In this document: positions 9,706 through 32,000 of the stretch, one piece after another
Layout: the number at the start of each line of letters is the position of its first letter
How positions within the stretch are numbered: position 1 is the stretch's first letter
Source of the DNA: Candidatus Woesearchaeota archaeon
GTDB lineage: Archaea > Nanobdellota > Nanobdellia > Woesearchaeales > JAWAQC01
NCBI GenBank assembly: GCA_046704905.1
Contig: JBJKRA010000018.1
Span: 1 to 32,000, forward strand
Reading direction: 5' to 3'
Length of the DNA: 32,000 nucleotides
Translations under genes and position numbers: made by a program
Notes under the pieces: generated by a model
The model's input: the letters and a program-made list of their open reading frames with translations, nothing else
What the model was told of the DNA's origin: nothing
Databases searched by the model: none

Positions 9706-9720
9706 GTTTATAAATCTTTT
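9706..9720 (-). promoter_or_regulatory. TATA box upstream of rps8e (minus-strand AAAAGATTTATAAAC)
   Basis: It lies 37 nt upstream of ATG 9669, and an AGAGGTT SD-like site follows. Confidence 0.35.
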
Positions 9721-11723: not shown

Positions 11724-13424
11724 CTACTGCTTCGAGATATCGGGGACCTGCATGACAGGGAAGACCCTGATCTTGTAGACATCGTCTCCGTCAAGCGCCA
11801 GGTAGAGAATCTGCGGCTCTACGGCATCGAGCGGTGAGGGCGCGATGGGGAAGAGGAGACCGCTTCGCGCCTCCGCAAGCCTGCGGTTGAGACTGCGATC
11901 CCTGGAGCGCCTGGTACGGTATTTCCTCTCCAGCGCTTTGATGCTCCTCTCCAGATGGCCGACTATCTCCTCCCGGAGATCCTCTATCATCTGATAGCCT
12001 TCCGGCGTGTACCAACTGTAGCGCAGGCGTCGATAGGCGTCCTCCCGCTTCTCGGAGAGCTTGCCGAGCAGAGCCATCATCTCGGCACCGCTCGCGGAGA
12101 GCTCTTTTTCGTAGGCCGCGATCTGCGCGGTGAGCGTGTTCTTTTCCTTCTCGAGCGTCGTCTTCCCTTTCCGTAAGGCATTGTAGCGACGGACGATAGG
12201 CTTCTTGTTGTAGTTCGTCAGTGCCTTCTTCCGCTGCTCCATCCCGTAGCTCTCCTCGACGAGAGCCCTTGCGATATGTCCGGCGTCGGCGCCGACGGCC
12301 CTTTCCTGCTCCTCCAGGAGGCGCTTCACCTTCCTCTTCTGCCTGTCGTAGGCCTCGAACAGCGTCAGACGTGTCTCCTCCACCTCTGCAAAGCGCTTGT
12401 CCTCCTGGTACTTCCTCAGCCGGTCCTCAATCCCGTCGCGTTTGGTCACGGTCCTGACGAGAGTCTTCTGCAGCCTGTCGTAGGAGAGATGTATCCTGTC
12501 GTAGGCCTCTTTGAGGTTCGTGATATAGCGATCCAGAAGATTGCTGTACCCGTACCTGGCCAGTTCCGAAGGGGTCATCCCCTTTATGGCGCGCAGCTCC
12601 TCGCGAAGGTCCGACAGGTCAGGCGCAGAGGTGGTAACCTCTTTTAGGGGATGGTACTCGAACTGCACGTTGGCCACCCCGTCCTGGTGGAAGCCTGCGA
12701 TGCCGAGCACCGCCACAGGGAAATAGCCTTTCGTCTCTATGAGGTTCTTGATATGGCCCAGCTCCGCATAGTAGGTGTTCCTGGAGATATGCTCAATCGT
12801 GTGGGGCGCATCGATCGTCACCGGCGAGGCCGTGTCCGGATCGAGCCAGAGCGCATCCTTGTCGAAGAGCAGCCCGCCGGTCGCCCCTTTCCTGGCAAGG
12901 TAGGACGATACCATGTCCTCGAGCCCCGGATGCCTCTTCATCTGGAAAGGCTTCATGGAGAGATAGGCGCCGTCGGCGACCATGAGGGGAAGGCCGCTCC
13001 CATGCCGCAGGTCGTCGAGGATCTCGAAGAGAAGCCTGGAATGTGCTATGAGATAGGAGAGGTTGATCGCGCTCGGCTGGCTCGGAGCGAACGAGGAGTC
13101 CACAGAAGCGGTGGACTTCATATCCATGGGCATGGCGACCAGCGCCTCACCCGTATGCTGGACAAGTATCAGGTCGGGGATGGCCACCCACCGGTCATGG
13201 CCGTCGGCAAGGCCCTCCGCGGAGAAGATACGGCCGTACCTGTCCCTGAGCATGTCTACAGGGATGATGGTCGTGCCCTTCCCCTCACCCTCGTGGGAAA
13301 GGATGACGAAGTCCTCCGCACCGTAGAATATGGGATAGAGGGACGAGACGCCTGCTTCGAAGAGCGCTTTCACATGATCCTTCTCGGAGCCTCTTATCTT
13401 CGCCTCGGGCCCGAGCATGCTCAT
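11724..13424 (-). CDS. Hypothetical 566-aa protein: N-terminal globular region with a possible PD-(D/E)xK motif, plus a long Arg/Lys/Glu-rich coiled-coil C-terminal half
   Basis: The start is set at MSMLGPE (ATG 13424), which forms an ATGA overlap with the upstream DHH gene stop (13421-13424). The candidate motif is WVAIPDLILVQ...ALVAMPMDMKS. The C-terminal roughly 230 aa are heptad-like and charged. Confidence 0.65.
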   Translation of the reverse strand: MSMLGPEAKIRGSEKDHVKALFEAGVSSLYPIFYGAEDFVILSHEGEGKGTTIIPVDMLRDRYGRIFSAEGLADGHDRWVAIPDLILVQHTGEALVAMPMDMKSTASVDSSFAPSQPSAINLSYLIAHSRLLFEILDDLRHGSGLPLMVADGAYLSMKPFQMKRHPGLEDMVSSYLARKGATGGLLFDKDALWLDPDTASPVTIDAPHTIEHISRNTYYAELGHIKNLIETKGYFPVAVLGIAGFHQDGVANVQFEYHPLKEVTTSAPDLSDLREELRAIKGMTPSELARYGYSNLLDRYITNLKEAYDRIHLSYDRLQKTLVRTVTKRDGIEDRLRKYQEDKRFAEVEETRLTLFEAYDRQKRKVKRLLEEQERAVGADAGHIARALVEESYGMEQRKKALTNYNKKPIVRRYNALRKGKTTLEKEKNTLTAQIAAYEKELSASGAEMMALLGKLSEKREDAYRRLRYSWYTPEGYQMIEDLREEIVGHLERSIKALERKYRTRRSRDRSLNRRLAEARSGLLFPIAPSPLDAVEPQILYLALDGDDVYKIRVFPVMQVPDISKQ

Positions 13425-15403
13425 CGGTGCACCAGCTCCCGGTCGAATTCGTACTCCTTGACAGCGTCGAAGAACTCGGGTACCATGTCCTCCTCGAGAT
13501 AGCACGACGACGCCGTCGGATGTCCGCCGCCGCTCTCCACGATGCCGGCCTCTTTCATGTCTGAAAAGAACTCCCCGAGATGTATGCTCTCGCCGTAGGC
13601 GAGGTTGGCCCTTCCCGATATCTTCCTCTGATGGCCATAGGCAGGGGCGCCGGTGAAGAGGATGCCGTGGCGTCCGGGGAGCATGCCGACGTTCGCGACG
13701 ATGCCGCCGAAGACGCCGGTGAAGGGGAGGATGCTCGGGACCTTGAGCTCATCGGCGAGCGTGTCGAGCGGGAGGTAATGCATCGTCTTCGTGATATGAC
13801 GCATCATGCCCTTGTCGAAGATCATCTCCTCGACCATGCCCATGCCCTGAGAGATCGTATGCCGGTATTCGAGATGGATCTCCTTGAGCCGGGAGAAGAT
13901 GTCCTCACGATCCTGCCACTTGCCGAAACCCTCTTTTTCAAGCGCGGCGATCTCTGTCCTGGTCAAGGGGAGATCGAGATCAAGCGCGACCGCCGCGTTG
14001 AACAACGGGCCATGGCCGAGCTTGGATGTCGAGGTCATGAGGTTCGCGATCTCGGCTATCGAGAGGCCGGAAAAGACCCTCGACCCCTCCCATGCGATCA
14101 CGTACTGGCCCTTATGCAGCTGCGATAGGTAGCTTTCCCTGAATACAGGCTCGGAGAATGCGACGACGCTATTGACGTACTTGGCGAGAAGCCTGCCTCT
14201 CTGGTCGTCGGTGAGCTCGCTCATCCGGCTGTCCGGGTCGATGCCGATCGAACGGAGGAAGATGTTGGCCTTGGCCGTGCGGTCGCTTCCGCGGTGGTAA
14301 TCGTCGGTATAGTCGTCGAACACGACAGGCATGACGCCGCCGTCAGGATCGGTGAGGTAGCGGCCATCCCTGCTGTCCATAATGAGCGTCCTGTCGAGCG
14401 CGTCCTGGCTGACGGCGTTGAGCTTTCCGACCTCGTCTCCGGTGAGGTAGTCGAGATACTGCTGGTTCGTACCGGCCTTGTTGCCCGGGCCGACGGCAAG
14501 GAGGAACTTGAGCTGGCGGTAGTGCTTGTCGAGCCAACCGGAGATATTCTTTTCGTACACTCCGCCGAGCGCCTTCGCCGCTTCGGGGAAGGTCGGCGGC
14601 CGGTACTTGAGGTTGAAGGGGATGTCGCTCTCCGCCACTGCCTTCTGCAGGGGCTTTAAGAAATAGCCGTAGAGGGGACTGTCGACCCAAGAGATCATGT
14701 GCTTACGTTCGAGGTAATGGTAGAGCGCGGCGTTCGCTCCGGCGACGGACTGCTGGTCTGCCGCAGAGCCCGCGATGCCGATGACCGTCGAGTAGGTGAG
14801 GCGCTCCTCGAGACGCTTACGCTGCTTCTCGGTCGAGGGGTCGCCGGCATACATCTTGAGCAGCCTATCGCCGACAGCGTTGAAGAGGAAGGCGGTCGCA
14901 GCGCCAGCCGAGAGCTCTTTCCCCCCGTCGATGCCATGCGCGTTCGGGTTGAGATAGAAGACGCCGGAAGGCGAAGGGCGCGGCTGATGATGGTCCAGCA
15001 CGACGGTGCCTTCCGGATACAGTCCGGGAAGGTCCATGGGATCGAGGCTTCCGAGGTCGGAAAAGAGGAAATGCCCTTCCCCCCCTTCCGAAAGACGTGC
15101 GTGGATGCTCTCCAGGCTGGCCTTCGCGCCAGGATCGGTCTCTATGCCCATGACGCGCTCGGAGTCCACTTTTACGCCGTTGTTCCCGACCATGTCCGCG
15201 AGGGAGCGCATGCCGATGGTCGCGCCCGTCTCGCCGGAAAGGCCGTCGGCGTCGGCGAGATGGGAGACGGCAAAGAAGTATCGCTCAGGCCCATAGTTGA
15301 AGAGGATCTCCAGGAGGCGGTCCGCAACAGCATCTTGCAGAACATTGTACTCGTCATAGCCCTCCCCTTCGGGAAGCGGTGTGTCTATGCCCTTTCCTCC
15401 CAT
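13421..15403 (-). CDS. DHH/DHHA1-family phosphoesterase (RecJ/Cdc45-like) with a large central insertion
   Basis: The DHH motifs are SHLADADGLSG (DxD), FSDLGS, VLDHHQP (DHH) and the DHHA1 GGGHPTASS. At 660 aa it is longer than typical family members. Confidence 0.75.
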   Translation of the reverse strand: MGGKGIDTPLPEGEGYDEYNVLQDAVADRLLEILFNYGPERYFFAVSHLADADGLSGETGATIGMRSLADMVGNNGVKVDSERVMGIETDPGAKASLESIHARLSEGGEGHFLFSDLGSLDPMDLPGLYPEGTVVLDHHQPRPSPSGVFYLNPNAHGIDGGKELSAGAATAFLFNAVGDRLLKMYAGDPSTEKQRKRLEERLTYSTVIGIAGSAADQQSVAGANAALYHYLERKHMISWVDSPLYGYFLKPLQKAVAESDIPFNLKYRPPTFPEAAKALGGVYEKNISGWLDKHYRQLKFLLAVGPGNKAGTNQQYLDYLTGDEVGKLNAVSQDALDRTLIMDSRDGRYLTDPDGGVMPVVFDDYTDDYHRGSDRTAKANIFLRSIGIDPDSRMSELTDDQRGRLLAKYVNSVVAFSEPVFRESYLSQLHKGQYVIAWEGSRVFSGLSIAEIANLMTSTSKLGHGPLFNAAVALDLDLPLTRTEIAALEKEGFGKWQDREDIFSRLKEIHLEYRHTISQGMGMVEEMIFDKGMMRHITKTMHYLPLDTLADELKVPSILPFTGVFGGIVANVGMLPGRHGILFTGAPAYGHQRKISGRANLAYGESIHLGEFFSDMKEAGIVESGGGHPTASSCYLEEDMVPEFFDAVKEYEFDRELVHR

Positions 15404-16960: not shown

Positions 16961-19819
16961 TCAATGGTCCCACCAGGAGAGGGTCTCGTTCCAGTCCAGC
17001 TTGTAGAGGTAGATGTTCGTGCCGTCCACTGCCGTCGTGTGCTTGAGCAGCTTGAAGTACTTGAGGCCCGCGCCCTGGAAGAAGAACATCCTGGTGAAGA
17101 TGGAGTCCGCGAGGTCCGGATCGGACATCTGCAGCATGTAGCTGCCCTGGTCCTGGTAGAGGATCGCACCGGTCGCCGGCGTGAGGAGACGCGAGGCCAT
17201 GACCTTCTTCTCGACGGTACCGTTCTTTTCGTAGGTGAAGACCTGCGGATAGAGCATGCCGTTCGTCGTCAGGGCGTACGCGGTCATGGTGGTCATGTTC
17301 ACGAGGATGCCGTTGCTGCAGGTGAGCAGGTCCCCTGACCCGGTGCAGCTCGCCGGCGAGCCCAGGTAGCCCGGCCATGGCGCTATCCACTGGTCGCCGG
17401 AGGTGTTCTTTATCGCGTCATAGGTGGTCTCGGCGTCAGGCAGGGTGTAGTTGTACTGCTGCATGAGGATGTTGACGCCTACCTGCTTGTTCGCGCTGTT
17501 GTCGACCTTGTTGTAGATGTCCGCCCGCGTGAAGTTCCAGATGCCGAAGTGCGCCCATACCGGAGCCTTGCCTATCATGTCCTGCGACGCTATGAAGAAC
17601 TGGTCGTAGAGGTCCGTGCAGTGCGTGTAGTTGAGCACCTGGTCAGCCGTGGCCTTCGATATGTTGTCTGCGGCAAGGGTCGCTGCGGCCTGCGAGCGCG
17701 ACTGGTAGATGATCTTCTGCACGATTGTGACCGCCCTGTAGCTGTTGTTGTTCGTCGCGTTGTAGAGCACGTTGTAGGCCTGGTTCTGCCCGCAGTTGAG
17801 CATCCGCAGGATGTCGACGGCCTTGGTCTCGTTGTTCGTGAGGAGCACTTCCCCTACCCAGTGTATGCGGTTGCCCTGGTCGCCTCCGTCGAAGGTGACG
17901 GACTTCCCTGTCATGGAGTAGAACCAGTGGCCGAAGTCCCACCACGAGGTGATGATCGCGTTGTTCGGATCCGCCTTGATGACGCTGAGCGTATTGTACC
18001 ATGCGTCGTTGAAGCTCGGGACGAGGTTCGTCGCCTGGTTCCAGCCCTGCACCATGGGCGCGGGCACGTAGAGGATGAGGAAGAGCAGCACGATCACCCC
18101 GGCGATCTTGAGGAGACGCGGATCGATGTTGAGCGGGCCTCCGAGCATGCCTGAGAGCTCGAGCAGCTTCTCTGCCGCGATGCCGATCGCCATCGCCACG
18201 TAGAGGATGTGGAGCGCGGTGAAGCGTGTCCCGTTCATCGCGGCATACAGGGTGCCTGCGAAGAAGATGGTGATGAGGAGCGGGAAGAAGAGGTCGGCAT
18301 GGTAGTCCTTGCGTATGTAGGTGAGGACGAACGCCGCGAGCAGCGGGAGCATCAGCAGGAAGAGGTAGACGAACGTGCTCCCGAGTACCATGTGCTGGAC
18401 GCCTGCGATGAGGCCGTTCGTCGACTTCGTCATGGTGAAGAAGAGGAGGATGCCGTACCACGCCGCGACGATGCCGGCGAACCAGTACTCTATCCTCGTC
18501 GCCTCCTTCTTGAAGGTGAGGTAGCTCGCGGCAATCCCCAGGAAGGCGAAGAGGTAGAGCAGCGTCCCGCCGCTGGCCGCGACGACGCTCGCGACGTTTC
18601 CTGTCCCGAGCTCGGCGACCGTGGTCAGGACGTTCGGCCAGATGGTGGTCACGCCGACCGCCTGGTACTGGATGAACCAGAAGGGTGCGACGTAGGAGGC
18701 GAAATAGTCCTTGAGCACACCGAAGGCAGTCTGGTCGGGGATGAGGAACCCGATGAACGCGATGAAGACGACGCTCGAGAGGAAGTAGGAGCCGAGCACC
18801 GAGAGGACATGACGCATGTCCTTTCCTGCGAAGAACCCTTCCATCTTCTTATGCAGGGCGAAATGGCGCACGGCCAGGTAGACGACATAGCCCAGGATCG
18901 CCCCGATGATGAAGAGGTTGGTGTACCAGAACCCTGTCCAGAGGAACATGTAGACCGCTATCGAAAGACCGGAGAGGGCCGCATAGAGCTTCGTCTTCCA
19001 GGGGCTATCGGCATGCCATGCCTCGACGAGCAGCCAGAGGATGAGCAGGGGCATGATGAAGTTGTACTGGTCGTTGTCGTAGAAGCCCGCAGAGGTACGG
19101 AAGATCACGGACTGTGCGACGGCGAGGAGCATGGCGGCGGTAAAGCCGCCGAGGCTTCCGCCCGAGAGCCTCCTGCCCAGGAAGAAGGCAGGGATCATGG
19201 CGAGCATGGAGAGGATCGCAGGGTAGAAGAACATCGAGCGCATCAGCGGCGTGCCGGGGTAGAAGAGGTTGACGAGCTTGTCCCACTCTGCGGCGATGAA
19301 GGGGATGAGGCGGAAGCCGGCAGACTGCCCCAAGCGGCCATTGCGCTGTGTGACATAGGGCTGCCCGTTGATGATCTTGTCGCCGGCGGTCCCCGTCTTG
19401 AGATAGTTCTGGGCGTAGTAGTACTGGAGATAGGGGTCGATGCCGAGCAGGTAGGTGGTATTGTCGGGGCCCTTGTAGTGCGACTTGAGGCTGTCGGCGA
19501 CCGTCGCGATCTCGCTGTCGATCTGGGCCTTGTTCTGCGAGACGTACTGCTGCAGCTGCTGGTTGACGAGGCTCGTCTGCTGCGCGGCGGGGAGATAGGC
19601 GTACTTCTGGGCCACCTGCTGCTGGAGCTGGGACTGGTAGAAGCCGAGCACCTGCTTGGTCGCATAGGTGTTCATGGCAGGCAGGTTGTTCGCCTGCACA
19701 CGGTACTGGTACGCTACGGTCATGACGCTGAGTATGAGCAGCGCGATCAGGATGCCCTTGACGAGCGGTTTCTTGCATGTGCCGTAGATCTTGTCCATGT
19801 CCATGACGGTCAGCCTCAT
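16961..19819 (-). CDS. aglB: Archaeal oligosaccharyltransferase AglB (STT3 family)
   Basis: 952 aa and multi-TM. The SWWDFGHW motif corresponds to WWDYG, and GIDPYLQYYY to the first-loop acidic motif. The start ATG overlaps the rnz stop (ATGA at 19816-19819). Confidence 0.9.
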   Translation of the reverse strand: MRLTVMDMDKIYGTCKKPLVKGILIALLILSVMTVAYQYRVQANNLPAMNTYATKQVLGFYQSQLQQQVAQKYAYLPAAQQTSLVNQQLQQYVSQNKAQIDSEIATVADSLKSHYKGPDNTTYLLGIDPYLQYYYAQNYLKTGTAGDKIINGQPYVTQRNGRLGQSAGFRLIPFIAAEWDKLVNLFYPGTPLMRSMFFYPAILSMLAMIPAFFLGRRLSGGSLGGFTAAMLLAVAQSVIFRTSAGFYDNDQYNFIMPLLILWLLVEAWHADSPWKTKLYAALSGLSIAVYMFLWTGFWYTNLFIIGAILGYVVYLAVRHFALHKKMEGFFAGKDMRHVLSVLGSYFLSSVVFIAFIGFLIPDQTAFGVLKDYFASYVAPFWFIQYQAVGVTTIWPNVLTTVAELGTGNVASVVAASGGTLLYLFAFLGIAASYLTFKKEATRIEYWFAGIVAAWYGILLFFTMTKSTNGLIAGVQHMVLGSTFVYLFLLMLPLLAAFVLTYIRKDYHADLFFPLLITIFFAGTLYAAMNGTRFTALHILYVAMAIGIAAEKLLELSGMLGGPLNIDPRLLKIAGVIVLLFLILYVPAPMVQGWNQATNLVPSFNDAWYNTLSVIKADPNNAIITSWWDFGHWFYSMTGKSVTFDGGDQGNRIHWVGEVLLTNNETKAVDILRMLNCGQNQAYNVLYNATNNNSYRAVTIVQKIIYQSRSQAAATLAADNISKATADQVLNYTHCTDLYDQFFIASQDMIGKAPVWAHFGIWNFTRADIYNKVDNSANKQVGVNILMQQYNYTLPDAETTYDAIKNTSGDQWIAPWPGYLGSPASCTGSGDLLTCSNGILVNMTTMTAYALTTNGMLYPQVFTYEKNGTVEKKVMASRLLTPATGAILYQDQGSYMLQMSDPDLADSIFTRMFFFQGAGLKYFKLLKHTTAVDGTNIYLYKLDWNETLSWWDH

Positions 19820-21113: not shown

Positions 21114-22334
21114 CTAGATGATAGAGTAGAAGCCTGCAGCCGCCTTGAAATAGGTTTTCCCCTTCCCGAGGACTTTCCCGATGATGGCCTCCACGCTGTC
21201 GAGCTGGTGGGCCCGGGAGAGATGCCTGGACACGTAAGCTTCAGCCCGGTCCGTCATCCTGCCGAGCGCGTCCGGAGACATGGAAAGGATTTCCATAGTC
21301 TTTCCAGCAAGGTCTCCGATGTTTCCCATCGAGAAGGTGAACCCGTATTTCCCCTGCGCCGTCTGCTCCAGCCCTGCGGGCATGTCGGAGATGAGGAGGG
21401 GAAGACCGATGGCCTGCGCTTCGGCCCCCACCCGTGGATAGCCTTCCGATTCCGATGCTAGGACGAAGAGGTCGCTTATGAGCATATGCTTGGGCATTTC
21501 GCTATAAGGCACTTTGCCCGGTACCCTGAAATGGGATGCGTATGGCGATTGGCCAATCGTCTCCTTAAGGAGCGCCGTTTCAGGACCCTCACCTACTATC
21601 AGGTAGAAGACATTGGGCATCTCAGCGATCACATGCTCTGCCGATGCGGCGATATCCGTTACCCTCTTGACCGGATAATGGTTGGACGCGTGCATGACAA
21701 CTTTTGCATCTGCAGGTATTTCGAGCCCGGCGCGCAGCGTCGAGAGCTCTTCCTGGCTGTACGAAGTGTTGAACAAGGAAAAATCCACACCGTTGTAGAC
21801 AGTCGTTATATCGCTTTTCGGTATTCCATACGCGATCATGAGCTGCCGAAAATGCTCGGCTACTACGATGACGTGATCCGCGTCCCGGATATTATCCAGG
21901 AATTCGACAGTCTTTTCCGGAGTGAAGATGCCCTGGGCAAGCGCTCTCGTAGGCGTCCCATGGAGATACTGTATCGTCGGGAGGTCCAGTCCCCTGGCTG
22001 CCATGCGATACCATGACCAGGAATCGTGCCCGAGGATGACGGCATCGGGTCTGTTCCTCTCCAGCTGTTCTGCGACGAAAGCGTTAACAGTGGCTGTCTG
22101 CTCCGGGGCTGGGGGTATTCCTCCATAACCGAAGGTGTAGGGAACACGGGTTACCGGTATCCCCATATCCTTTTCTGATATGAGGTCATATTCCTTATCC
22201 CCGTCGTAGGGCTGGGAGATGACGATTACCTCATGCCCCCTTCGTTTGAGGCCAGAAGCGAGTTCCGCGTTGGCGAACTCTGAACCCCCCAGCGAGGGGA
22301 GATATGAAGTGAGGAAAGCAATCTTCTCCGCCAT
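21114..22334 (-). CDS. GT4-family glycosyltransferase
   Basis: The N-terminus LTSYLPSLGGSEFANAELASGLKRRGHEV and the C-terminal ASESEGYPRVGAEAQAIGLPLLISD (E-x7-E region) fit GT4. The start is set at MAEKIAFL, because the TATA-like GTCTTATATGG lies about 27 nt upstream of ATG 22334. Confidence 0.8.
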   Translation of the reverse strand: MAEKIAFLTSYLPSLGGSEFANAELASGLKRRGHEVIVISQPYDGDKEYDLISEKDMGIPVTRVPYTFGYGGIPPAPEQTATVNAFVAEQLERNRPDAVILGHDSWSWYRMAARGLDLPTIQYLHGTPTRALAQGIFTPEKTVEFLDNIRDADHVIVVAEHFRQLMIAYGIPKSDITTVYNGVDFSLFNTSYSQEELSTLRAGLEIPADAKVVMHASNHYPVKRVTDIAASAEHVIAEMPNVFYLIVGEGPETALLKETIGQSPYASHFRVPGKVPYSEMPKHMLISDLFVLASESEGYPRVGAEAQAIGLPLLISDMPAGLEQTAQGKYGFTFSMGNIGDLAGKTMEILSMSPDALGRMTDRAEAYVSRHLSRAHQLDSVEAIIGKVLGKGKTYFKAAAGFYSII

Positions 22335-22457
22335 GGAAAAGGACATCGGCGCAGGCCATATAAGACGTGGCATATCCTTTTTTGTAGTTCTTTCGCAGAG
22401 GCTATGAGGAAGGAAAAATAGATAAGGTCCCGGACGTGTCCCCTATCCGCACATACG

Positions 22458-23111: not shown

Positions 23112-23642
23112 ATGGCAGAGGATGACCCTGAAGAGATGCTCTCCGCGATCGCGCGCCTGCGCAAGGAGAAGCTGAAGAGCGCGTACCGCGACACGGACGT
23201 CGGGATATGGGGCTTTTCGCAGGAAAAGCTCGTGTACAAGGCGTTCAGGATGCTCGATCTCTCCAGGTACAGGAAGTTCATGGACCTCGGCAGCGGGGAC
23301 GGGACCGTGGTTTTCATAGCGTCCTTGTTCACCGAGGCTTTCGGCATAGAGTACGACCACGACGTGCATGCTGCGGGGCTCGAGATGCAGAAAGAGCTCG
23401 GCGCGGGGGGCACCTTGCTCGAAGGGAGGTTCGAGGACTTCGACCTCTCAGGCTATGATTTCGTCTTCATCAACCCGGACAAGGAATGGCGGAAGTTCCA
23501 GGACACGTTGCTCGCGCAGCTTTCGGACGACGTGACGATCGCCGTGTACAACAACGTCTTCCTGCCTGAGAAGCTGCCGCGCCTGCGCACGGTCTGGCCG
23601 AACCCCTACGTCCCGGTCACGCTCTACACGAAGAGGAAGTAG
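23112..23642 (+). CDS. Class I SAM-dependent methyltransferase-like protein
   Basis: Motif I is FMDLGSGDGTVV, followed by an acidic residue at GIEYD, and DFVFINP is the post-II/III pattern. A 3-nt gap after the preceding gene suggests co-translation. Confidence 0.55.
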   Translation: MAEDDPEEMLSAIARLRKEKLKSAYRDTDVGIWGFSQEKLVYKAFRMLDLSRYRKFMDLGSGDGTVVFIASLFTEAFGIEYDHDVHAAGLEMQKELGAGGTLLEGRFEDFDLSGYDFVFINPDKEWRKFQDTLLAQLSDDVTIAVYNNVFLPEKLPRLRTVWPNPYVPVTLYTKRK

Positions 23643-24840: not shown

Positions 24841-24904
24841 GCCAAAAAGAAAAATATATAAATAGATAGTATCAGAAAAAGATATATTAGTATAAGATTT
24901 ATAG
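24841..24904 (+). promoter_or_regulatory. 64-nt strongly AT-rich block with several TATA-like elements upstream of surface-protein gene A; the proximal box is AAGATTTATAG (24894-24904)
   Basis: The sequence is gccaaaaagaaaaatatataaatagatagtatcagaaaaagatatattagtataagatttatag. The proximal TATA ends about 26 nt before ATG 24930. Confidence 0.4.
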
Positions 24905-24929: not shown

Positions 24930-26147
24930 ATGAAAAAGAAAGGCCAGGAAACAGGAAGTTCTGCTGCGATACTTTTGGCGCTCCTCGGGCTGTTCGTGCT
25001 CCTCTACCTCCTCTTCGTGCCTCCCGGCGTGCGGGAGAGCCTCCTCAACGGGAACATCACCTATGCGAACGAGACCACGACGTACAAGGCCTCCTACGTC
25101 CTCCTGATGGACGAACGCCCCGGACTCCTCAACTACATCAACCTGCCCATCTGCCAGAACAAGGAGTGCGACCACGACCTGCCATCGTTCTCGCTGCTGC
25201 GCACGACTGCGTCGCAGCAGATAGCCTCGTTCAACCCCTTCATTGTCAAGAACAACATCTTCACCAAGGAGGACAAGACCCTCACCTTCTCGGTGAACGA
25301 CCTCCAGGACACGAGCAACCTCCTGCTGACGTTCGGCGCGAACGAGCATTCCGGGACGCTGACGGTCATGCTCAACGGGCACGACATCTACCAGAAGGCG
25401 ATGGACACCTACAACGTCGAGCCCATCACGATCCCAAAGACCATCCTCGCGATGACGAACACCCTGACCTTCTCCGTATCGGGTGTGGGCGCGCAGTTCT
25501 GGAAGACGAACGCCTACGGCATCGAGAACGCCAAGATCGTCGGGGACGTGACGGACACGACCAAGCAGCAGAGCGCGACAACGTTCTTCATCTCGAGCGA
25601 CGAGATCGATGCCATGCAGAGCGCGGACCTACGGTTCTTCCCCGACTGCAAGGCCTCGCAGGTCGGACCGCTGTCCATCACCCTCAACGCGAGAAGCATC
25701 TACCAGGGGGTGCCTGACTGCGGCATGATCAACGTCGTGCAGCTCTCGAACAACGCGCTCGCTACAGGGGACAACAGCCTATCGTTCCAGACCGCATCCG
25801 GCACATACCTCATCGACAGCATCAGCGTGCAGACGCACCTCAAGGACATCAACTATCCTGTCTACTACTTCGACCTCTCTGACCAGCAGTACCAGGACCT
25901 CATGCAGAACAGGACGGACCTCAACCTCACGCTCGATTTCGCGAAACGGCTCAACCAGTCCTATGACGTCTTCTACAACCTCAACGGCTACAAGCGCTCG
26001 GTGCAGGTGGACCAGGGCATCAGCGAGGTGCAGAGCAAGCTCCTCAACGTCGCCCTGAAGAAGAAGAACAACTGGATCTCCTTCGAGCCGGACGGGCAGC
26101 CTGTCACGATCGCAGAGATGAAGATAGAGATCAAGCCGCGCGGTTGA
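24930..26147 (+). CDS. Surface protein A: N-terminal anchor or signal (MKKKGQETGSS plus a hydrophobic helix) followed by three tandem beta-rich repeats of about 90 aa
   Basis: Track ORF of 405 aa. The repeats lie at about aa 117-206, 217-302 and 311-401 and share F.(V/I/L)S..., L.(V/I).LN(G/A)..(I)Y and a terminal (I/V).(V/I) pattern. There are 4 Cys and 5 N-x-S/T sequons. Confidence 0.8.
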   Translation: MKKKGQETGSSAAILLALLGLFVLLYLLFVPPGVRESLLNGNITYANETTTYKASYVLLMDERPGLLNYINLPICQNKECDHDLPSFSLLRTTASQQIASFNPFIVKNNIFTKEDKTLTFSVNDLQDTSNLLLTFGANEHSGTLTVMLNGHDIYQKAMDTYNVEPITIPKTILAMTNTLTFSVSGVGAQFWKTNAYGIENAKIVGDVTDTTKQQSATTFFISSDEIDAMQSADLRFFPDCKASQVGPLSITLNARSIYQGVPDCGMINVVQLSNNALATGDNSLSFQTASGTYLIDSISVQTHLKDINYPVYYFDLSDQQYQDLMQNRTDLNLTLDFAKRLNQSYDVFYNLNGYKRSVQVDQGISEVQSKLLNVALKKKNNWISFEPDGQPVTIAEMKIEIKPRG

Positions 26148-26172
26148 ACCGCTCCCGGGAAGTGCACCAGCG

Positions 26173-27555
26173 ATGGGAATCAAGGACAAGCTTAGCATGG
26201 CAAAGGCCGCTTTCTCGGCGTACACGGGCAACATAGGCGGCGCGCTGAAGGGAGTGGTCGATGCCGTCAAGAACAAGGGGGGCGGTTCAGGCACCACGAC
26301 CGTCGTGAGCGCGCCTGCGCCGCCAGCCGCTCCCGCGTACCGCCCGGCAGCTGCCCCGCCGCCTCCGGACTACTCGCGCTTCCTCAAGAAGAGCGGGAGC
26401 AGCATCGGCAAGCTCATCCTCATCCTCGTTTTCGTGGCGTTCTTCCTCACGCTGAGCCTGCCCTATATCTACTCGGCGAACTTCGTCCCGCCGAAGCTCC
26501 TCAGCAGCATCACGATAGGCTTCCAGGGCTTCTTCGCGAACTTCGGGCAGTGGTGGACCACGTTCAACCCTGCGAAGAGCTGGAGCGATTTCCTCAACAA
26601 GCAGACCGCATACGCGACAGGCGGCTACTACGAGGGCCAGGTCGACCAGAAGAAGGCAGGCCCTGACCTCGGCGTGACCATCACACAGTTCAAGGCGCAG
26701 CGGGCGACCTTCACCGAAAAAGAGCCCGTCGCGCTTTGGGCGGACATCCAGGCGAGGGCTCTCGGCTTCGACCAGTACGACCAGCAGCTCTCGCTCACCG
26801 CCTGGTGCGAGTACAGGGATCCTATCACTGGAAAGACCGTCAAGACCAAGGTCAACAGCTACCAGATATACCAGTACGGCGAGGAGTACGTCGACTGCTC
26901 GTTCGGCAACATGACCCAGGGCGCATACACCGTGAAGGCGGACGCGGAGTTCGATTTCTCCACGCACTCCTACCTCAAGACCTACTTCATGGACGCGTCG
27001 CGCCTCCAGATATACCGCATGCAGAACAAGGACCCCCTCACCGAGTTCGACGTGACCGACCCGAGCCCCGTCTCCGTATACACGAACGGCCCGGTGGCCG
27101 TCTCGATCGGCACGAACGAGAACCTGCCGCTCCCGGTGCCTTCGGGCAAGGGCTTCTCCAGCATCTTCGGCGTGACGATAGAGAACCAGAACCCGAACAA
27201 CGGCATCATCATGCAGATCAAGTCGGTCCAGTTCCAGCTGCCCGAGGCGCTATCGTTCGACCCGGACCACTGCGATTTCGTCCCAGGGACCCCCACCACT
27301 GTGACGGACAGCGTCTCCGGCGAACGCTACAACGTCTATACCATCACGCCGGACGGCAAGAAGATCACCACGCAGACCTTCTCCGACATCGACCGGTTCA
27401 TCACGCTCAACTGCCGGCTCGACGTGGACGATTCGAGCCTCCTCCTCGGCAATTCCCCCTTCGCCACCAAATACCTGCGCGCGAGCGTGGACTACGACTA
27501 CCTGCTGACCAAGCAGGCGACCGTCATCGTGCAAAAGGCACAGAGCCTGACATGA
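26173..27555 (+). CDS. Surface protein B: bitopic membrane protein with a cytoplasmic amphipathic and Pro/Ala-rich N-tail, one TM helix, and an extracellular domain distantly paralogous to C/D/E
   Basis: Track ORF of 460 aa. It contains APAPPAAPAYRPAAAPPPPDY and a TM helix IGKLILILVFVAFFLTLSLPYIY. Motifs shared with C/D/E are NGPVAVSIG, FGVTIENQNPNNGII, ITLNCRL and SVDYDYLL...ATVIV. Its stop overlaps the gene C start (ATGA 27552-27555). Confidence 0.8.
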   Translation: MGIKDKLSMAKAAFSAYTGNIGGALKGVVDAVKNKGGGSGTTTVVSAPAPPAAPAYRPAAAPPPPDYSRFLKKSGSSIGKLILILVFVAFFLTLSLPYIYSANFVPPKLLSSITIGFQGFFANFGQWWTTFNPAKSWSDFLNKQTAYATGGYYEGQVDQKKAGPDLGVTITQFKAQRATFTEKEPVALWADIQARALGFDQYDQQLSLTAWCEYRDPITGKTVKTKVNSYQIYQYGEEYVDCSFGNMTQGAYTVKADAEFDFSTHSYLKTYFMDASRLQIYRMQNKDPLTEFDVTDPSPVSVYTNGPVAVSIGTNENLPLPVPSGKGFSSIFGVTIENQNPNNGIIMQIKSVQFQLPEALSFDPDHCDFVPGTPTTVTDSVSGERYNVYTITPDGKKITTQTFSDIDRFITLNCRLDVDDSSLLLGNSPFATKYLRASVDYDYLLTKQATVIVQKAQSLT

Positions 27556-28475
27556 AAGCCGCAGCATTACTCCCCCTCATCGCAGCGCTCCTCCTCATCA
27601 GCGGCTGCGCCGGCGTCATGGGACCTGGCCAGCAGCCGAGCTACAACCCTTACCAGGGGACAGTCGGGCTGTCGATGTCCTTCGTGCCCAACGCCCCGCC
27701 GGACCAGGTCTACGAGCAGGAACAGGCGCCGATCGGCGTCCAGATTGAGAACGACGGTGCCGACGACATCCAGGGCGGCATCGTCAAGGTCATCACGGAG
27801 AACGACATCTTCAAGGCGCAGAAGACCGAGGCGGTCTTCGACCTCAAGGGCAGGAACCTCTACTCCCAGCAGGGTGAGCAGAAGGTGCTCATGTTCCCTG
27901 CGCAGGCAGGGGACCTCAAGGATTTCACCTCCATGGACACGAACATCATCGCCACGGCCTGCTACCGCTACGCGACGCACTACAGCTCCGAAGTCTGCAT
28001 CGACCCCTACCCGTTCGACCAGACCATGGCGAAACCCTGCACCAGCGCCACCCTCACCTCGACAGGGAGCGGCGCCCCTGTCGCCGTGACGAAGGTCGAC
28101 CCGAGGATGTCTCCGCAGCAGAACGGCTTCGGCGAGCAGGTGATGGTTCCCCAGTTCATCGTGACCATCCAGCAGGTCTCGGACGGCGAGGTGGTCAATC
28201 CGGACACCTGCACGCAGTCCACCATCAGCAGGACGGACTACGGCACGGTCTACATAAGCGGGGAGCTCGGCAACGTCCCGCTCCAGTGCACCCCGAACCC
28301 CGTCATCCTCAACCAGGACCCGACGGCCGTGGACCAGGGGACGATCACCCGATGCACCTATCAGGGGGAGATCAAGCAGGCGGAAGGCGTCCACAACTCC
28401 CTGCTCAACCTCAACCTCCAGTACGGCTTTTCCCAGAGGATCGCGAAATCCATCAAAATACTTACCACACAATAA
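27552..28475 (+). CDS. Lipobox lipoprotein C (paralog family, 6 conserved Cys)
   Basis: The true start is MKAAALLPLIAALLLISGC (lipobox LISGC). The upstream part of track ORF 26736..28475 is an out-of-frame overlap of gene B. Motifs include ACYRYATHYSSEVCIDPYP, KPCT, SGAPVAVTKV and LNLQYGF. Confidence 0.85.
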   Translation: MKAAALLPLIAALLLISGCAGVMGPGQQPSYNPYQGTVGLSMSFVPNAPPDQVYEQEQAPIGVQIENDGADDIQGGIVKVITENDIFKAQKTEAVFDLKGRNLYSQQGEQKVLMFPAQAGDLKDFTSMDTNIIATACYRYATHYSSEVCIDPYPFDQTMAKPCTSATLTSTGSGAPVAVTKVDPRMSPQQNGFGEQVMVPQFIVTIQQVSDGEVVNPDTCTQSTISRTDYGTVYISGELGNVPLQCTPNPVILNQDPTAVDQGTITRCTYQGEIKQAEGVHNSLLNLNLQYGFSQRIAKSIKILTTQ

Positions 28476-28502
28476 TGGCAGCAGAAACGCCGAAAAAAAG
28501 AA

Positions 28503-28513
28503 AGATTTATAAT
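28503..28513 (+). promoter_or_regulatory. TATA-like box (AGATTTATAAT) in the C-D intergenic gap, followed by an AAGGAG SD at 28540-28545
   Basis: It has the same AAGATTTATA core as the boxes upstream of gene A and rps8e, and lies 43 nt upstream of ATG 28556. Confidence 0.3.
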
Positions 28514-28555
28514 GCACTCTCTCCCAAAGCACCCCCTATAAGGAGCATGCTACCC

Positions 28556-29503
28556 ATGAAGAAGCTGGTTTTCCTCCTGGTCGCGGCCCTGCTGATCGCA
28601 GGATGCACGCAAGGCCCTAGCAAGCAGCCTGCGAACCTCAACTACATGTCGGGCAGCCAGGGGCTGGTCATGGAGCTGGCGAACGGGATGCCCCCTGCCT
28701 ACATCTACAACGGGGACAGGCTGAGCATCGGACTGACGCTCACGAACGCCGGCACGAGCCAGCTGACGGACGGCTATCTCTACATCGCAGGGTATGACCC
28801 GAGCATCATCGACCCCAACGGCAACACGGCCACAGGAAGCCTACCGCTGCCGCAGCCAGGGACCTACTGGCATTTCACCATACCCCAGCACCGCACGCAG
28901 TACGACAACGTGGGCGGACAGGTCTTCCAACAGTTCCAATCCAACTACATCACCCTCCCGCCGAACACGCCGAGCTATCTCGTCCCCCTGACCATCTACG
29001 CCTGCTACGTCTATGAGACGCACGCGACGGCCACCGTCTGCTTCGATCCCTACCCGCACAACACCGAGATGGACAAGCCCTGCATCACGCAGGACGTGGG
29101 CCTCGGCTCGCAGGGCGCCCCGATCGCCGTGACCAACGTGGCCGTGAGCAACAACGGCGGCCAGACGGTACGGATGATCTTCACCATCCAGAACGTGGGC
29201 GGAGGCGTGGTCTTCAACCTCAACGACATGCAGGACTGCCCCTCGAACATCGGGCCCGACGTTCGCGACACGGTCACGCTCTCCTCAGTCTCACTGGTCG
29301 GCAACGGCGCCGGCCAGATATCATGCAGCTATCCGACCGGCAACTCCGGCAACATACGCCTCGGCCCAGGAGAGACAGGGACCATCGTCTGCGAGGCGCC
29401 CATCGCCCGCGCAGCCGCGGCATACCAGAGGACCGTGCAGATAGACCTCACTTACGGCTACGCCCAATACATCAAGCAGACGGTCGAGATACGTTCAACA
29501 TGA
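28556..29503 (+). CDS. Lipobox lipoprotein D (paralog family, 6 conserved Cys)
   Basis: The start is MKKLVFLLVAALLIAGC (lipobox LIAGC), with the SD GGAG 10 nt upstream. The track ORF's N-terminal 90 aa are an artefact. Motifs include ACYVYETHATATVCFDPYP, KPCITQ, QGAPIAVTNV, FTIQNVGGG and DLTYGY. Confidence 0.85.
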   Translation: MKKLVFLLVAALLIAGCTQGPSKQPANLNYMSGSQGLVMELANGMPPAYIYNGDRLSIGLTLTNAGTSQLTDGYLYIAGYDPSIIDPNGNTATGSLPLPQPGTYWHFTIPQHRTQYDNVGGQVFQQFQSNYITLPPNTPSYLVPLTIYACYVYETHATATVCFDPYPHNTEMDKPCITQDVGLGSQGAPIAVTNVAVSNNGGQTVRMIFTIQNVGGGVVFNLNDMQDCPSNIGPDVRDTVTLSSVSLVGNGAGQISCSYPTGNSGNIRLGPGETGTIVCEAPIARAAAAYQRTVQIDLTYGYAQYIKQTVEIRST

Positions 29504-29522
29504 AAACCAGGAAGGTGATACC

Positions 29523-30452
29523 ATGAGAAAGACCTTTGTCTTACTGCTCGTGCTCTCGCTCGCGTTCATCGCAGGCTGCAGCAACAACACAAAGCAGCCG
29601 AGCACCACGCCCTACGTGGGCGGGACCACAGGCCTGCAGCTGAGCTTCGCGTCTGGCGCCCCGCCAGCGAGCATCTACGATGGCGGCGGCTTCCCGTTCG
29701 ACATCGACGTCAAGCTGCAGAACATGGGCGAGTTCACGATACCCAAGGACAACGTGACCCTCCGCCTCAAGGGCATCTACGCAGAGGACTACGGCAAGAC
29801 CGCGGCCGACCTGATAAAGCAGCCGAACGACGATCTCGTCGGCGTCAGGAAGGACGTGACCGGCAGGGTCTTCAACGGTATCCAGACGGATGTGGACTTC
29901 GGCGAGTTCAACTACCAGGGGAACATCTCCGGTGCCATGAGCAGCGTCGTGATCCTCGCGCAGGCGTGCTATTGGTACCAGACCACCGCCACGGCGGATA
30001 TCTGCGTCAGGACGAAGCTCAACGACCCGACCAGCGGCGTCTGCACCGTAGACGAGACCAAGCCCGTCTACAACTCCGGCGCGCCGATCCACGTGCAGAA
30101 CTTCCAGGAGACCGCCGTGTCGCAGAGCAAACTGCAGTTCACGTTCGACATCACGCACCTGGGCAACGGCAAATTCTTCATGCCCGGGGACCAGACGTGC
30201 AACGAGACGTACCAGGACCAGAACAAGGTCCGTGTGCTCGTCGACACCGGCTTCAGCGACGTAACCTGCACGGGTCTCAACGGCAACTCAGGGATCGTGA
30301 ACGTGCCTGAGGGGACCACGACCATGCGCTGCATCGTCACGGTGCCTGCGGACAAGGTCGGCGACTACCAGAAGGCGGTCACCATCAAGCTGGACTACGA
30401 CTACGAGGACAGCGTGGACACGACGATCAACCTCAAGCATGCCGGCCAGTAG
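29523..30452 (+). CDS. Lipobox lipoprotein E (paralog family, 6 conserved Cys)
   Basis: MRKTFVLLLVLSLAFIAGC carries lipobox FIAGC, and the SD AGGAAGGTGAT lies upstream. Motifs include ACYWYQTTATADICV, GVCTV, SGAPIHVQNF, FTFDITHLGNG and KLDYDY. There are 4 N-x-S/T sequons. Confidence 0.85.
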   Translation: MRKTFVLLLVLSLAFIAGCSNNTKQPSTTPYVGGTTGLQLSFASGAPPASIYDGGGFPFDIDVKLQNMGEFTIPKDNVTLRLKGIYAEDYGKTAADLIKQPNDDLVGVRKDVTGRVFNGIQTDVDFGEFNYQGNISGAMSSVVILAQACYWYQTTATADICVRTKLNDPTSGVCTVDETKPVYNSGAPIHVQNFQETAVSQSKLQFTFDITHLGNGKFFMPGDQTCNETYQDQNKVRVLVDTGFSDVTCTGLNGNSGIVNVPEGTTTMRCIVTVPADKVGDYQKAVTIKLDYDYEDSVDTTINLKHAGQ

Positions 30453-30470
30453 AGACCGAAACCTTTTCCT

Positions 30471-30986
30471 TCACTTTTTCTTCCTTATCTCCCTGAGAAG
30501 TGAACTTATGGTCTTTCCAGCGACCTTGCCCTTGAACCGTTCCATGGCCCTGCCCATGAGCGCGCCGATCGGGGCGTCTGGATCCTCTGACACGATGGCC
30601 TCAAGCGCCTTCCTTATCTCCTTCCCGTCGATCGGGCGATGGGCGGAGAGGTCGGCAGAGCCTGTCCTCCCCTGCTCCACAAGGATGTCCCGCGCAGCCT
30701 CCTCGAGGACCTCTCCCCTGTCGATCGCAGGGAGCAGCGTGGCCTCGATGTAAGCCGTGTCTACCTCGACGCCCTCCTTCCTGCGGATGTCCTTCGGGAG
30801 GACGAAGAGGGCCGTCGCGAGGAAAGAGAGGTGGATGTTCGGGAAGCGCCTGACGAGCCCGTCCAGATCGTAGGAAGAGCGCGCGAAAAAGGTCGCGTAC
30901 TCCTCGTTGATGCCGTACTGCTTCCGGTAACGAGCGATCCTCTCGTCGATGCGCTCGGGGACGGTGATGTGGGATAGGTCGGGCAC
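30471..30986 (-). CDS. gatE: GatE C-terminal portion (helical plus YqeY-like tail domains), separated from the upstream gatE ORF only by one in-frame TAA
   Basis: The tail IGALMGRAMERFKGKVAGKTISSLLRE matches the GatB/YqeY tail pattern. It is in the same frame as 31011..32000. The only candidate restart is GTG at 30984-30986. Confidence 0.7.
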   Translation of the reverse strand: MPDLSHITVPERIDERIARYRKQYGINEEYATFFARSSYDLDGLVRRFPNIHLSFLATALFVLPKDIRRKEGVEVDTAYIEATLLPAIDRGEVLEEAARDILVEQGRTGSADLSAHRPIDGKEIRKALEAIVSEDPDAPIGALMGRAMERFKGKVAGKTISSLLREIRKKK

Positions 30987-31010
30987 TATCGGCGGGATTT
31001 CGGTCTCGGG

Positions 31011-32000
31011 TTACATGCGAGCGGCACCAGGCATGGGACGAAGGTAGCTCGAAGAGCCGTCTGGGTTCGCGTTCCTGACCTCCTTCTCGAGCGACGTACG
31101 GGCGGCATGGGCGATGACCTCCCGGAGCGCATCCTCCGCACGCATCCTCTCGTCTGCGATGAGCACGAAGGCATCGTCATTTCCCGCCTTGAGCATCCTC
31201 TCTACGGCGGCGACCTCGTCTGCCGTTATGCCGTAGGCGGGAAGCTCGTCGGTATGGAACATGCCATGGACACCTCTCGTCTTCGCATGATCGGAGAGCT
31301 CCGAGCCGTAGCGCCTGCCCTCCTGCACGGCCTTGCCGAGGAGGCCGCGGTAGCCGGGGAGCCTGATCGCGAGGACCCTGCCGTCGGCCTTTCCCAGGGC
31401 GGCTGCGACGACCTTTGAGGACGTGCTCCTGAACGCCGACGAGACGTCGATTATCGCATGATCGGGGGAGAGCTTCCTCTCCATGATCGTACGGTGTATG
31501 CCGAGCAGATTCTGCTGGCGCAGGATCTCGTTGTCGACGATGGAGGGGATCATGCGCAGATCCTGCACACCCTTGATCTCGACGCGCACGCCCCCCTTTA
31601 TCGAGACGTTGAGATCCTGGCGGATCGTGCCGAGGCCACGCTTGACCTTCCCGGTGCTGCGCAGCACCATGCCGATGCGCTCGGCGACCTCCTTCGCCCC
31701 GGATGCTGTCACGATGTCGGGACCGGTCGCGATCTCGATGAGCGGTATGCCGAGACGCGAGAGGTTGTAGGTATTCTGCGTGCTCTCCCTCTCGACGATC
31801 TTGGCGGAGTCCTCCTCTATGCAGACGGTCTGGATGCTGACGCCGTCAAGACTGCCGCCGGTCGCGACGAGCGCGGTCCGCTGGAAGCCTGACGTGTTCG
31901 AGCCGTCTATGACGGTCTTACGCATCACCTGCACCTGGTCGACCACCGTCGCCCCAAGCATCCTGGCCACCTGCAGGACGACTGCGAGCGCGTCCGTGTC
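31011..32000 (-). CDS. gatE: Glu-tRNA(Gln) amidotransferase subunit E, core portion (5'-partial: the N-terminus lies beyond the right edge); ends at an in-frame TAA at 31011-31013
   Basis: MRKTVIDGSNTSGFQRT, GIPLIEIATGPDI, GLGTIRQDLNVSI, HTDELPAYGIT and YLRPMPGAARM are present. The reading frame stays open to position 32000. Confidence 0.85.
   Translation of the reverse strand, partial: DTDALAVVLQVARMLGATVVDQVQVMRKTVIDGSNTSGFQRTALVATGGSLDGVSIQTVCIEEDSAKIVERESTQNTYNLSRLGIPLIEIATGPDIVTASGAKEVAERIGMVLRSTGKVKRGLGTIRQDLNVSIKGGVRVEIKGVQDLRMIPSIVDNEILRQQNLLGIHRTIMERKLSPDHAIIDVSSAFRSTSSKVVAAALGKADGRVLAIRLPGYRGLLGKAVQEGRRYGSELSDHAKTRGVHGMFHTDELPAYGITADEVAAVERMLKAGNDDAFVLIADERMRAEDALREVIAHAARTSLEKEVRNANPDGSSSYLRPMPGAARM

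Follow-up and report, generated by a model that had tools for sequence, protein, structure and literature searches.

A conserved five-gene surface operon with three predicted lipoprotein paralogs in a Woesearchaeota-type archaeon

We analyzed a 32,000-nucleotide stretch of a Candidatus Woesearchaeota archaeon genome (assembly GCA_046704905.1, contig JBJKRA010000018.1, positions 1 to 32,000 of the forward strand), called the window here; all coordinates are given in the numbering of this 32-kb window, in which position 1 is the first letter. Five tightly spaced genes on the + strand, A through E, span 24930-30452. An earlier note made from the letters alone had described only the last three of them (C, D and E), as tandem lipobox lipoprotein paralogs. 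This triplet was confirmed, and the note had missed the upstream genes A and B, the five-gene operon and a fourth paralog within it. We hold with high confidence that C, D and E are lipobox lipoproteins with three disulfides, and that they are ancient, ordered paralogs in a conserved operon that includes the fourth paralog. The genes and their main features are as follows:

24930-26147, + strand: gene A, 405 aa, with an N-terminal KKKGQ and hydrophobic helix, three predicted jelly-roll beta domains and 4 Cys
26173-27555, + strand: gene B, 460 aa, with ~75 predicted cytoplasmic residues, one transmembrane segment at ~aa 79-99 and an ectodomain, without a C-terminal enzyme domain
27552-28475, + strand: gene C, 307 aa, position-1 lipoprotein paralog, predicted signal peptide at aa 1-18
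27606-27608, + strand: Cys19 of gene C, in the lipobox ISGC; the further Cys are residues 137, 149, 163, 220, 246 and 268
28556-29503, + strand: gene D, 315 aa, position-2 lipoprotein paralog, lipobox IAGC with its Cys at 28604-28606
29523-30452, + strand: gene E, 309 aa, position-3 lipoprotein paralog, lipobox IAGC with its Cys at 29577-29579

Genes A and B are separated by 25 nt, B and C overlap by 4 nt with the start of C and the stop of B read together as ATGA, and D and E are separated by 19 nt. Gene D has an alternative ATG at 28547 that would give 318 aa, and the start at 28556 is favoured by the spacing of an AGGAG Shine-Dalgarno sequence and by the public gene call. The three products were compared by BLASTP and aligned over ~300 residues with 27% identity for C and D (E-value (E) 5e-20), 25% for C and E (E 4e-14) and 28% for D and E (E 9e-21). 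These values demonstrate that the paralogy is real and not a chance resemblance, and the coordinates of the tandem paralogs described previously matched C through E exactly. The sequence blocks quoted for the three proteins (ACY.Y.T......[VI]C, GAP[VI].V, L.Y[GD][FY] and G(L)..PP..[IV]Y) were all found as well.

The signal sequences (MKAAALLPLIAALLLISGC in C, M(LPM)KKLVFLLVAALLIAGC in D and MRKTFVLLLVLSLAFIAGC in E) were evaluated with a PROSITE PS51257-type rule consisting of K/R in the n-region, an uncharged hydrophobic h-region, [LIVMFWSTAG]2-[LIVMFYSTAGCQ]-[AGS]-C and a Cys at about residue 15-35. All three fitted the pattern, with LIAALLLISGC in C (Cys19), LLVAALLIAGC in D (Cys20, or Cys17 from the shorter start) and LVLSLAFIAGC in E (Cys19), which agrees with the signals ending in LISGC, LIAGC and FIAGC reported before. 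Gene D also gave weak matches to Pfam LPAM_1 (E 0.0097) and, over aa 1-25, to a hidden Markov model (HMM) of the Cor-lipoprotein signal peptide (E 0.0028). Loss of the lipobox Cys in homologues had been named as a check on the lipoprotein assignment, and this Cys was kept in 373 of 386 family members. The strict PS51257-like rule was passed by 341/386, most of the failing members being open reading frames (ORFs) truncated at the N-terminus, and the full lipobox [LIVF][ASTIV][GAS]C was conserved at residue 14-39 (median 20) in 341/386 members covering all three paralog types. From these sequences we infer that mature C, D and E start at a lipid-modified Cys, the lipid presumably being archaeol. 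DPANN archaea are reported to be rich in predicted lipobox proteins and to encode a candidate lipidation enzyme, AliA (PMC12462473).

Each of C, D and E contains exactly 7 Cys, the lipobox Cys and 6 more. A three-sequence MAFFT alignment misplaced the last two Cys of C, which the family alignment put right. In a 10-sequence alignment C19, C137, C149, C163, C246 and C268 (numbering of the window C protein) were invariant; in a 100-sequence alignment C137, C149, C163, C246 and C268 were invariant while C19 and C220 were at least 90% conserved. The six further Cys thus stand at equivalent positions, as had been claimed. Pairing was derived from Cys co-loss across the 386 members and not from model geometry. 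Cys 149 and 163 were both present in 384 members and both absent in 2, with no mixed case, and Cys 246 and 268 were both present in 379 and both absent in 3. C137 and the Cys of the 220 region were jointly absent in 14 position-2 (D-type) and 12 position-3 (E-type) orthologues and never in position-1 proteins, and C137 was kept without its partner in only 3 sequences. This loss in pairs points to three disulfides, likely 149-163, which would clamp a loop, 137-220, which would staple the two domains together, and 246-268 inside domain 2, supporting the suggestion that three conserved disulfides are present. The modal Cys total was 7, or 5 after loss of the 137/220 pair, and as this number is odd the lipobox Cys is left unpaired. 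The earlier note had grouped the Cys in space, as a central block and a trio in the second half, without giving a pairing; the Cys are indeed present there, but the predicted 137-220 staple crosses this grouping.

The structure of C was predicted with AlphaFold2 (AF2) from the family alignment, with a predicted local distance difference test (pLDDT) score of 83 and a predicted template modelling score (pTM) of 0.75. The model contained the signal helix, a low-confidence disordered tether at residues 15-27 and then beta strands only, arranged in two halves. The ectodomain of C is therefore modelled as all-beta with two sandwich domains, matching the beta-sandwich halves proposed from the strand patterns. 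An N-x-G strand-turn was seen in each half, N67/G69 being invariant and N208/G210/G212 nearly so, and we take the 'x-V-x-V-x-N-x-G' strand-turn of both halves to resemble that of CARDB-type domains. Pfam CARDB and DUF11 gave no match in C/D/E or in 100 family members (E<=0.1). Foldseek searches against PDB and BFVD with the C model returned generic tandem Ig-like, MG or integrin-calf domains only, at template modelling (TM) scores of ~0.2, and there was no FimA/Mfa pilin, toxin or capsid among the top matches. Fsx1, an archaeal fusexin found at rank 47, scored no better than the generic matches and was rejected as a lead.

An exhaustive profile search with the C/D/E family matched 3,346 cluster representatives (50% identity) at E<=1e-3 and 1,699 at E<=1e-30, while a word-indexed search gave nine relatives only. 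Scanning a single genome for each prokaryotic species gave 198 matching stretches, and the locus counts in this work rest on the best 80 of these 198, with 83 loci in the set. Exactly three tandem members on one strand were present in 64/83 loci, and most of the other loci stop at contig edges. Across the 64 complete loci the best match of window C was the position-1 protein in 63, that of D the position-2 protein in 57 and that of E the position-3 protein in 61. C, D and E are thus, by comparison of these loci, distinct orthologous subunits whose order has been fixed since before the radiation of these archaea, which bears out the old duplications noted earlier. The fixed positional orthology argues for three non-redundant roles. 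Against Pfam, NCBIfam, PHROGs and PADLOC nothing was above threshold for A-E, leaving only the weak lipoprotein-signal matches of D; when 100 family members were scanned individually against Pfam at E<=0.1, LPAM_1 was the sole recurrent family. Sequence-profile searches of PDB with the C/D/E family and with the A family gave 0 matches.

In the relatives, two genes, one of ~390 aa followed by one of 500-1,250 aa, invariably came before the C/D/E genes in the same orientation. They are the orthologues of window A and B, with family HMM E-values of 4e-134 for A and 2e-158 for B, and jackhmmer searches started with window A and window B matched 59 and 72 loci, respectively. The A-E block of the relatives lies between pelota and the small subunit of replication factor C (RFC), and in the window it is flanked by an unknown gene upstream and GatE downstream. 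As the flanks differ while the block persists, the five genes are a conserved unit. The median identity between the same genome pairs was 34-39% for A-E, 52% for pelota and 70% for RFC, meaning that A-E are fast-evolving at one common rate, as expected for surface proteins. The family was not found in IMG/VR and chromosomal synteny is kept between housekeeping genes, so a viral or provirus origin was not supported. Two contigs of one metagenome-assembled genome (MAG; CAZBGH01), loci L020 and L062, each carried the operon, indicating that the cluster is occasionally duplicated.

The B and C/D/E families were compared by profile alignment with hhalign, giving a probability of 83% and E 8.8e-6 over 245 columns. 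This alignment paired FNF.T.AY..YFMD of B with CY.Y.T.A..VCID of C/D/E, and NGPV with GAPVAV, and B is therefore a fourth, distant paralog that is anchored by a transmembrane segment. Window B has one such segment, and many relatives have several. Among 69 B homologues with a complete core, 46 had a C-terminal extension of >150 aa and 11, like window B, had none. An SLT lytic-transglycosylase domain with conserved catalytic E-S and G.MQ motifs was present in 31 of the 46 extended proteins, and in 36/74 B homologues overall by local jackhmmer; this count was used as a strict SLT-motif regular expression matched 3/74 and was too narrow. One homologue (L035 9-2663) carried an NlpC/P60 endopeptidase (E 2e-14) at the place taken by SLT in others, and an fn3 domain was added in some. 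Wall hydrolases are thus swapped on the same predicted carrier (SLT versus NlpC/P60), and two different peptidoglycan hydrolases on one carrier point to bacterial murein as a target in the lineages that have them. SLT proteins of Woese- and Pacearchaeota have been proposed earlier to act on bacterial host walls (PMC8204110). Window B had no Pfam match, and an SLT-like segment was not found in any frame of the window. A further very large surface protein was seen in a Woesearchaeota-type genome (L003 18836-20984; JGI 3300021153, Ga0216254_1000041), where a giant gene with a 7,281-aa product and faint SLT, peptidase M48 and ABC1 matches lies ~8 kb downstream of the orthologous operon and is preceded by a 308-aa gene.

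Gene A orthologues occupied the same operon position in 59 loci and shared a conserved N-terminus, KKAQGG.NAAILVAIIA.LII.YI.FLP..ERE.LL. The AF2 model of A (pLDDT 79) consisted of a helix at 9-29 followed by an all-beta region with three beta-sandwich jelly rolls. Foldseek against PDB matched it to generic carbohydrate-binding-like jelly rolls (BcsB, reelin, GH35 C-terminal domains and PNGase F) at a TM score of ~0.2, and profile comparison showed A to be unrelated to B/C/D/E. Judged from its residues, the N-terminus could be a signal anchor, perhaps an uncleaved one, or else a class III signal like that of pilins. The window sequence is KKKG/QETGSSAAILL and the family sequence KKAQGG.NAAILV, so that K-G/A-Q is present and the +2/+3 residues are polar or Gly. 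We take these +2/+3 residues to be unlike the FlaFind-type pattern.

Candidate transcription signals were found around the operon:

24894-24903, + strand: AAGATTTATA, candidate B recognition element (BRE)/TATA element, 27 nt upstream of the gene A ATG in an AT-rich divergent intergenic region
28502-28511, + strand: AAGATTTATA again, between C and D, where it may act as an internal promoter for D-E
9709-9718, - strand: third copy, the exact 10-mer
30453-30480, + strand: T-runs TTTT and TTTTT after the E stop, a possible archaeal oligo-T terminator, overlapping the 3' end of the convergent GatE gene

The exact 10-mer AAGATTTATA occurred 3 times in the window against 0.21 expected, suggesting that it is probably the BRE/TATA promoter consensus of the source organism. 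Its copies may define an A-B-C and a D-E transcript.

The best 80 loci were labelled mostly Woesearchaeota, Nanoarchaeia or Nanoarchaeota, and the C/D/E family is essentially confined to Woesearchaeota/Nanoarchaeota MAGs. Many loci (L014, L015, L017, L019, L020 and others) were titled 'uncultured Methanosarcinales archaeon (binchicken)' yet had the Woesearchaeota-type pelota-ABCDE-RFC arrangement, and the label on such records is probably a placeholder or an error. The genome of the window was itself absent from these loci. Window C was at most 33% identical to any retrieved homologue, and the window leucyl-tRNA synthetase at most 60% identical to database matches, the best named ones being Nanoarchaeota/Woesearchaeota. 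Together with a GC content of ~60%, these low identities place the window as a deep-branching, high-GC member of the Woesearchaeota/Nanoarchaeota DPANN radiation.

Several other features of the window were recorded:

11724-13505 and 13421-15403, - strand: ORFs with overlapping ends, 593 and 660 aa, without Pfam match
16961-19819, - strand: AglB/STT3 oligosaccharyltransferase; with the GT4 glycosyltransferase at 21114-22373 (- strand) it lies 5-8 kb upstream of the surface operon
23112-23642, + strand: 176-aa ORF with a match (E 1.8e-6) to the DOT1 histone-methyltransferase domain PF08123, immediately upstream of the operon's divergent neighbour
30471-32000, - strand: GatE, running off the window end

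A DOT1-like domain is unusual for an archaeon. GatE contains one in-frame TAA at 31011-31013, which replaces the Tyr of the conserved GatB/GatE motif PGAARM-Y-PETD (PGAARM-stop-PETEIPP), and frame and homology resume after the stop. A nonsense mutation, a pseudogene or a fault in the assembly is the likely cause; recoding of TAA was rejected as gene C terminates normally at TAA.

Four of the five predicted surface products are paralogous and the block is inherited as one unit at one rate, which makes a single hetero-oligomeric complex the most economical explanation. We therefore favour, tentatively, the reading that A-E form one hetero-oligomeric surface complex with a host-contact function; hetero-oligomeric display of C, D and E, which the earlier note had suggested, is plausible. 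A-B-C-D-E would be co-transcribed, and each of mature C, D and E would begin at its lipidated Cys, followed by a ~20-residue flexible linker and two Ig/CARDB-like sandwiches. The five proteins would assemble on the outer membrane face, held by two transmembrane helices and three lipid anchors, and would form a platform through which the envelope of another cell is contacted. In relatives with a hydrolase the C-terminus of B would display SLT (once NlpC/P60) and thereby bind or open the wall of a bacterial host, while the lineage of the window would retain a hydrolase-free core in an adhesion or scaffolding role.

Several points weigh against this reading. Window B and 11/69 of its relatives are without a hydrolase, and the core function therefore cannot be murein cleavage; this implies adhesion or scaffolding rather than catalysis. 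Co-assembly and host contact are deduced, and both the lipidation and the disulfides of C/D/E are read from sequence. The fold matches of C and A were generic (TM score ~0.2) and gave no functional lead. Mirror-tree partial correlations were 0.36 for A-B, 0.43 for B-C and 0.36 for D-E, higher for adjacent genes only and equally explained by linkage. The lineage is without a cultured member, and the searchable literature gave no expression or localisation data. A broader claim is that A-E are the lineage-defining host-interaction apparatus of Woesearchaeota-type DPANN, in which four double-sandwich paralogs and a jelly-roll subunit are combined with exchangeable wall-degrading effectors on B, the hydrolase-free form marking an archaeal or wall-less partner or an adhesive mode. 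We regard this as doubtful.

Other functions were weighed against the same data. C, D and E could be independent SusE/SusF-like ligand-binding lipoproteins, which would bind the glycans or muropeptides that the B hydrolase sets free so that a metabolically poor cell can take them up. Their lipid-anchored tandem beta-sandwich architecture is of this kind, their partners carry carbohydrate-binding-like jelly rolls (A) and glycan- or peptide-cleaving domains (B homologues), and generic fold matches included accessory domains of carbohydrate enzymes (GH115, sialidase). We nevertheless consider it unlikely, as a transporter gene was not found in or next to the operon in the 83 loci, the B ectodomain is itself paralogous to C/D/E and the fixed 1:1:1 order suggests stoichiometric assembly, the operon persists where B is without an enzyme, and no carbohydrate-binding module family was recognised by the sequence scans. 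Three lipid-tethered Ig-like paralogs might also be a structural part of the envelope, either an S-layer-like lattice or its membrane anchor. Chains of Ig-like domains are common among archaeal S-layer proteins, which can carry a lipid anchor, the operon appears lineage-wide and chromosomal, and the AglB and GT4 genes are nearby in the window. N-glycosylation sequons numbered 5 in A, 0 in C, 0 in D and 4 in E, so that C and D have none and E only 4, and S-layer Pfam domains had no match in C/D/E or in the 100 scanned members. Furthermore, S-layers made of one or two proteins are not typically encoded by an operon of five genes in which one subunit carries a hydrolase, and Woesearchaeota MAGs have been reported to express S-layer genes that are annotated separately (PMC11606122). 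We judge an S-layer role rather improbable.

A surface fibre that lipoprotein precursors form by strand exchange, on the model of Bacteroidia type V pili and with B as the membrane anchor, would account for the ~300-aa two-sandwich precursors, the several paralogs per operon of which one is membrane-retained, and the strongly conserved C-terminal strand L.YGYT..I.K.I.I. Yet a FimA/Mfa-type structure was absent among the 50 best PDB fold matches, the C-terminal strand was, with high confidence, part of the monomer fold in the AF2 model, and neither a protease nor a conserved cleavage site was identified. The likeness is architectural only and we judge a fibre very improbable. Almost equally improbable is that the N-terminal Cys is not lipidated and has another role, the signal being cleaved by signal peptidase I or kept as an uncleaved anchor. 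Archaeal lipidation has been demonstrated in haloarchaea only (PMC12462473, PMC13631571), which would allow this, but the full lipobox and not just its Cys is conserved in 341/386 members and the odd Cys total (7, or 5 after pair loss) leaves the N-terminal Cys unpaired. Least credible of all is variable or alternative surface display, that is antigenic or host-range variation, which the earlier note had suggested for these tandem surface-protein paralogs of low mutual identity. The suggestion did not hold up, as one-to-one positional orthology was found in 57-63/64 loci, exactly three copies were present in 64/83 loci with most exceptions at contig ends, the proteins diverge at the same rate as A and B, and repeats or recombination signals were not noted.

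The host-contact complex, our tentative preference, would bear on how Woesearchaeota and related lineages, which rank among the uncultured archaea of widest distribution, attach to or feed on partner cells. Three 'hypothetical proteins' become a defined and testable unit, a surface operon widespread among the Woesearchaeota-type genomes recovered, with predicted lipid anchors and disulfide staples and a carrier that displays a bacterial-wall hydrolase in many relatives. For work on archaeal lipoproteins beyond the haloarchaea, C/D/E offer a large and clean example. If the host-contact device is real, genomes alone could indicate whether a host is bacterial or archaeal, from whether the B effector domain is present or absent and of which type.

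Neither the five-gene operon nor the C/D/E family, with its predicted pattern of disulfides and its link to the SLT carrier, was described in the searchable literature. The operon is a previously uncharacterised variant of two known kinds, archaeal lipoproteins and surface hydrolase carriers, that occurs lineage-wide and is not an oddity of the window. Its parts resemble several known systems. Like SusE/SusF glycan-binding lipoproteins, C/D/E are predicted to be tethered tandem beta-sandwich proteins beside the gene of a glycan-cleaving enzyme, but a TonB/SusC-like transporter was not found and there is no sequence homology. The type V pili of Bacteroidia (FimA-E, Mfa1-5) share the operon of paralogous two-sandwich lipoprotein precursors with one membrane-retained anchor paralog, and differ in that the top PDB matches contained no such fold, that no processing site or protease was seen and that they belong to a different domain of life. 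The CARDB and E-set Ig-like domains of archaeal surface proteins resemble the Ig-like sandwich predicted in each C/D/E half, with generic fold matches only, whereas the six-Cys pattern and the putative inter-domain staple are specific to the C/D/E family. The wall hydrolases PrgK/TraG of Gram-positive type IV secretion systems (a transmembrane segment with SLT and CHAP/NlpC-P60) parallel the swappable, VirB1-like SLT or NlpC/P60 on a membrane-anchored carrier (PMC12102498), although VirB4/VirD4 ATPases and other secretion genes were not found in the 83 neighbourhoods and sequence homology is lacking.

Other comparisons are with archaeal proteins. Unlike characterised archaeal lipoproteins, to none of which they are related, C/D/E do not belong to the solute-binding proteins and are encoded in a dedicated operon as three paralogs with a transmembrane-anchored fourth, and they are known here from sequence in a lineage, DPANN, where lipidation has never been demonstrated. 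As in the Haloferax volcanii model of archaeal lipoproteins (AliA/AliB pathway; PMC12462473, PMC13631571), they have a Sec-type signal with a positive n-region, an h-region of ~10 residues and [LIV][AS]G-C, and the lipobox is conserved among their homologues. The literature on the large extracellular SLT proteins of Woese- and Pacearchaeota (Castelle et al. 2021, PMC8204110, fam00969/module 98) covers those proteins and not the five-gene operon, C/D/E or the paralogy of the carrier ectodomain, and window B differs from them in having no SLT. They come from the same lineage, the B homologues share their SLT domain with its catalytic Glu-Ser, and the role proposed for them is attachment to, or attack on, bacterial walls.

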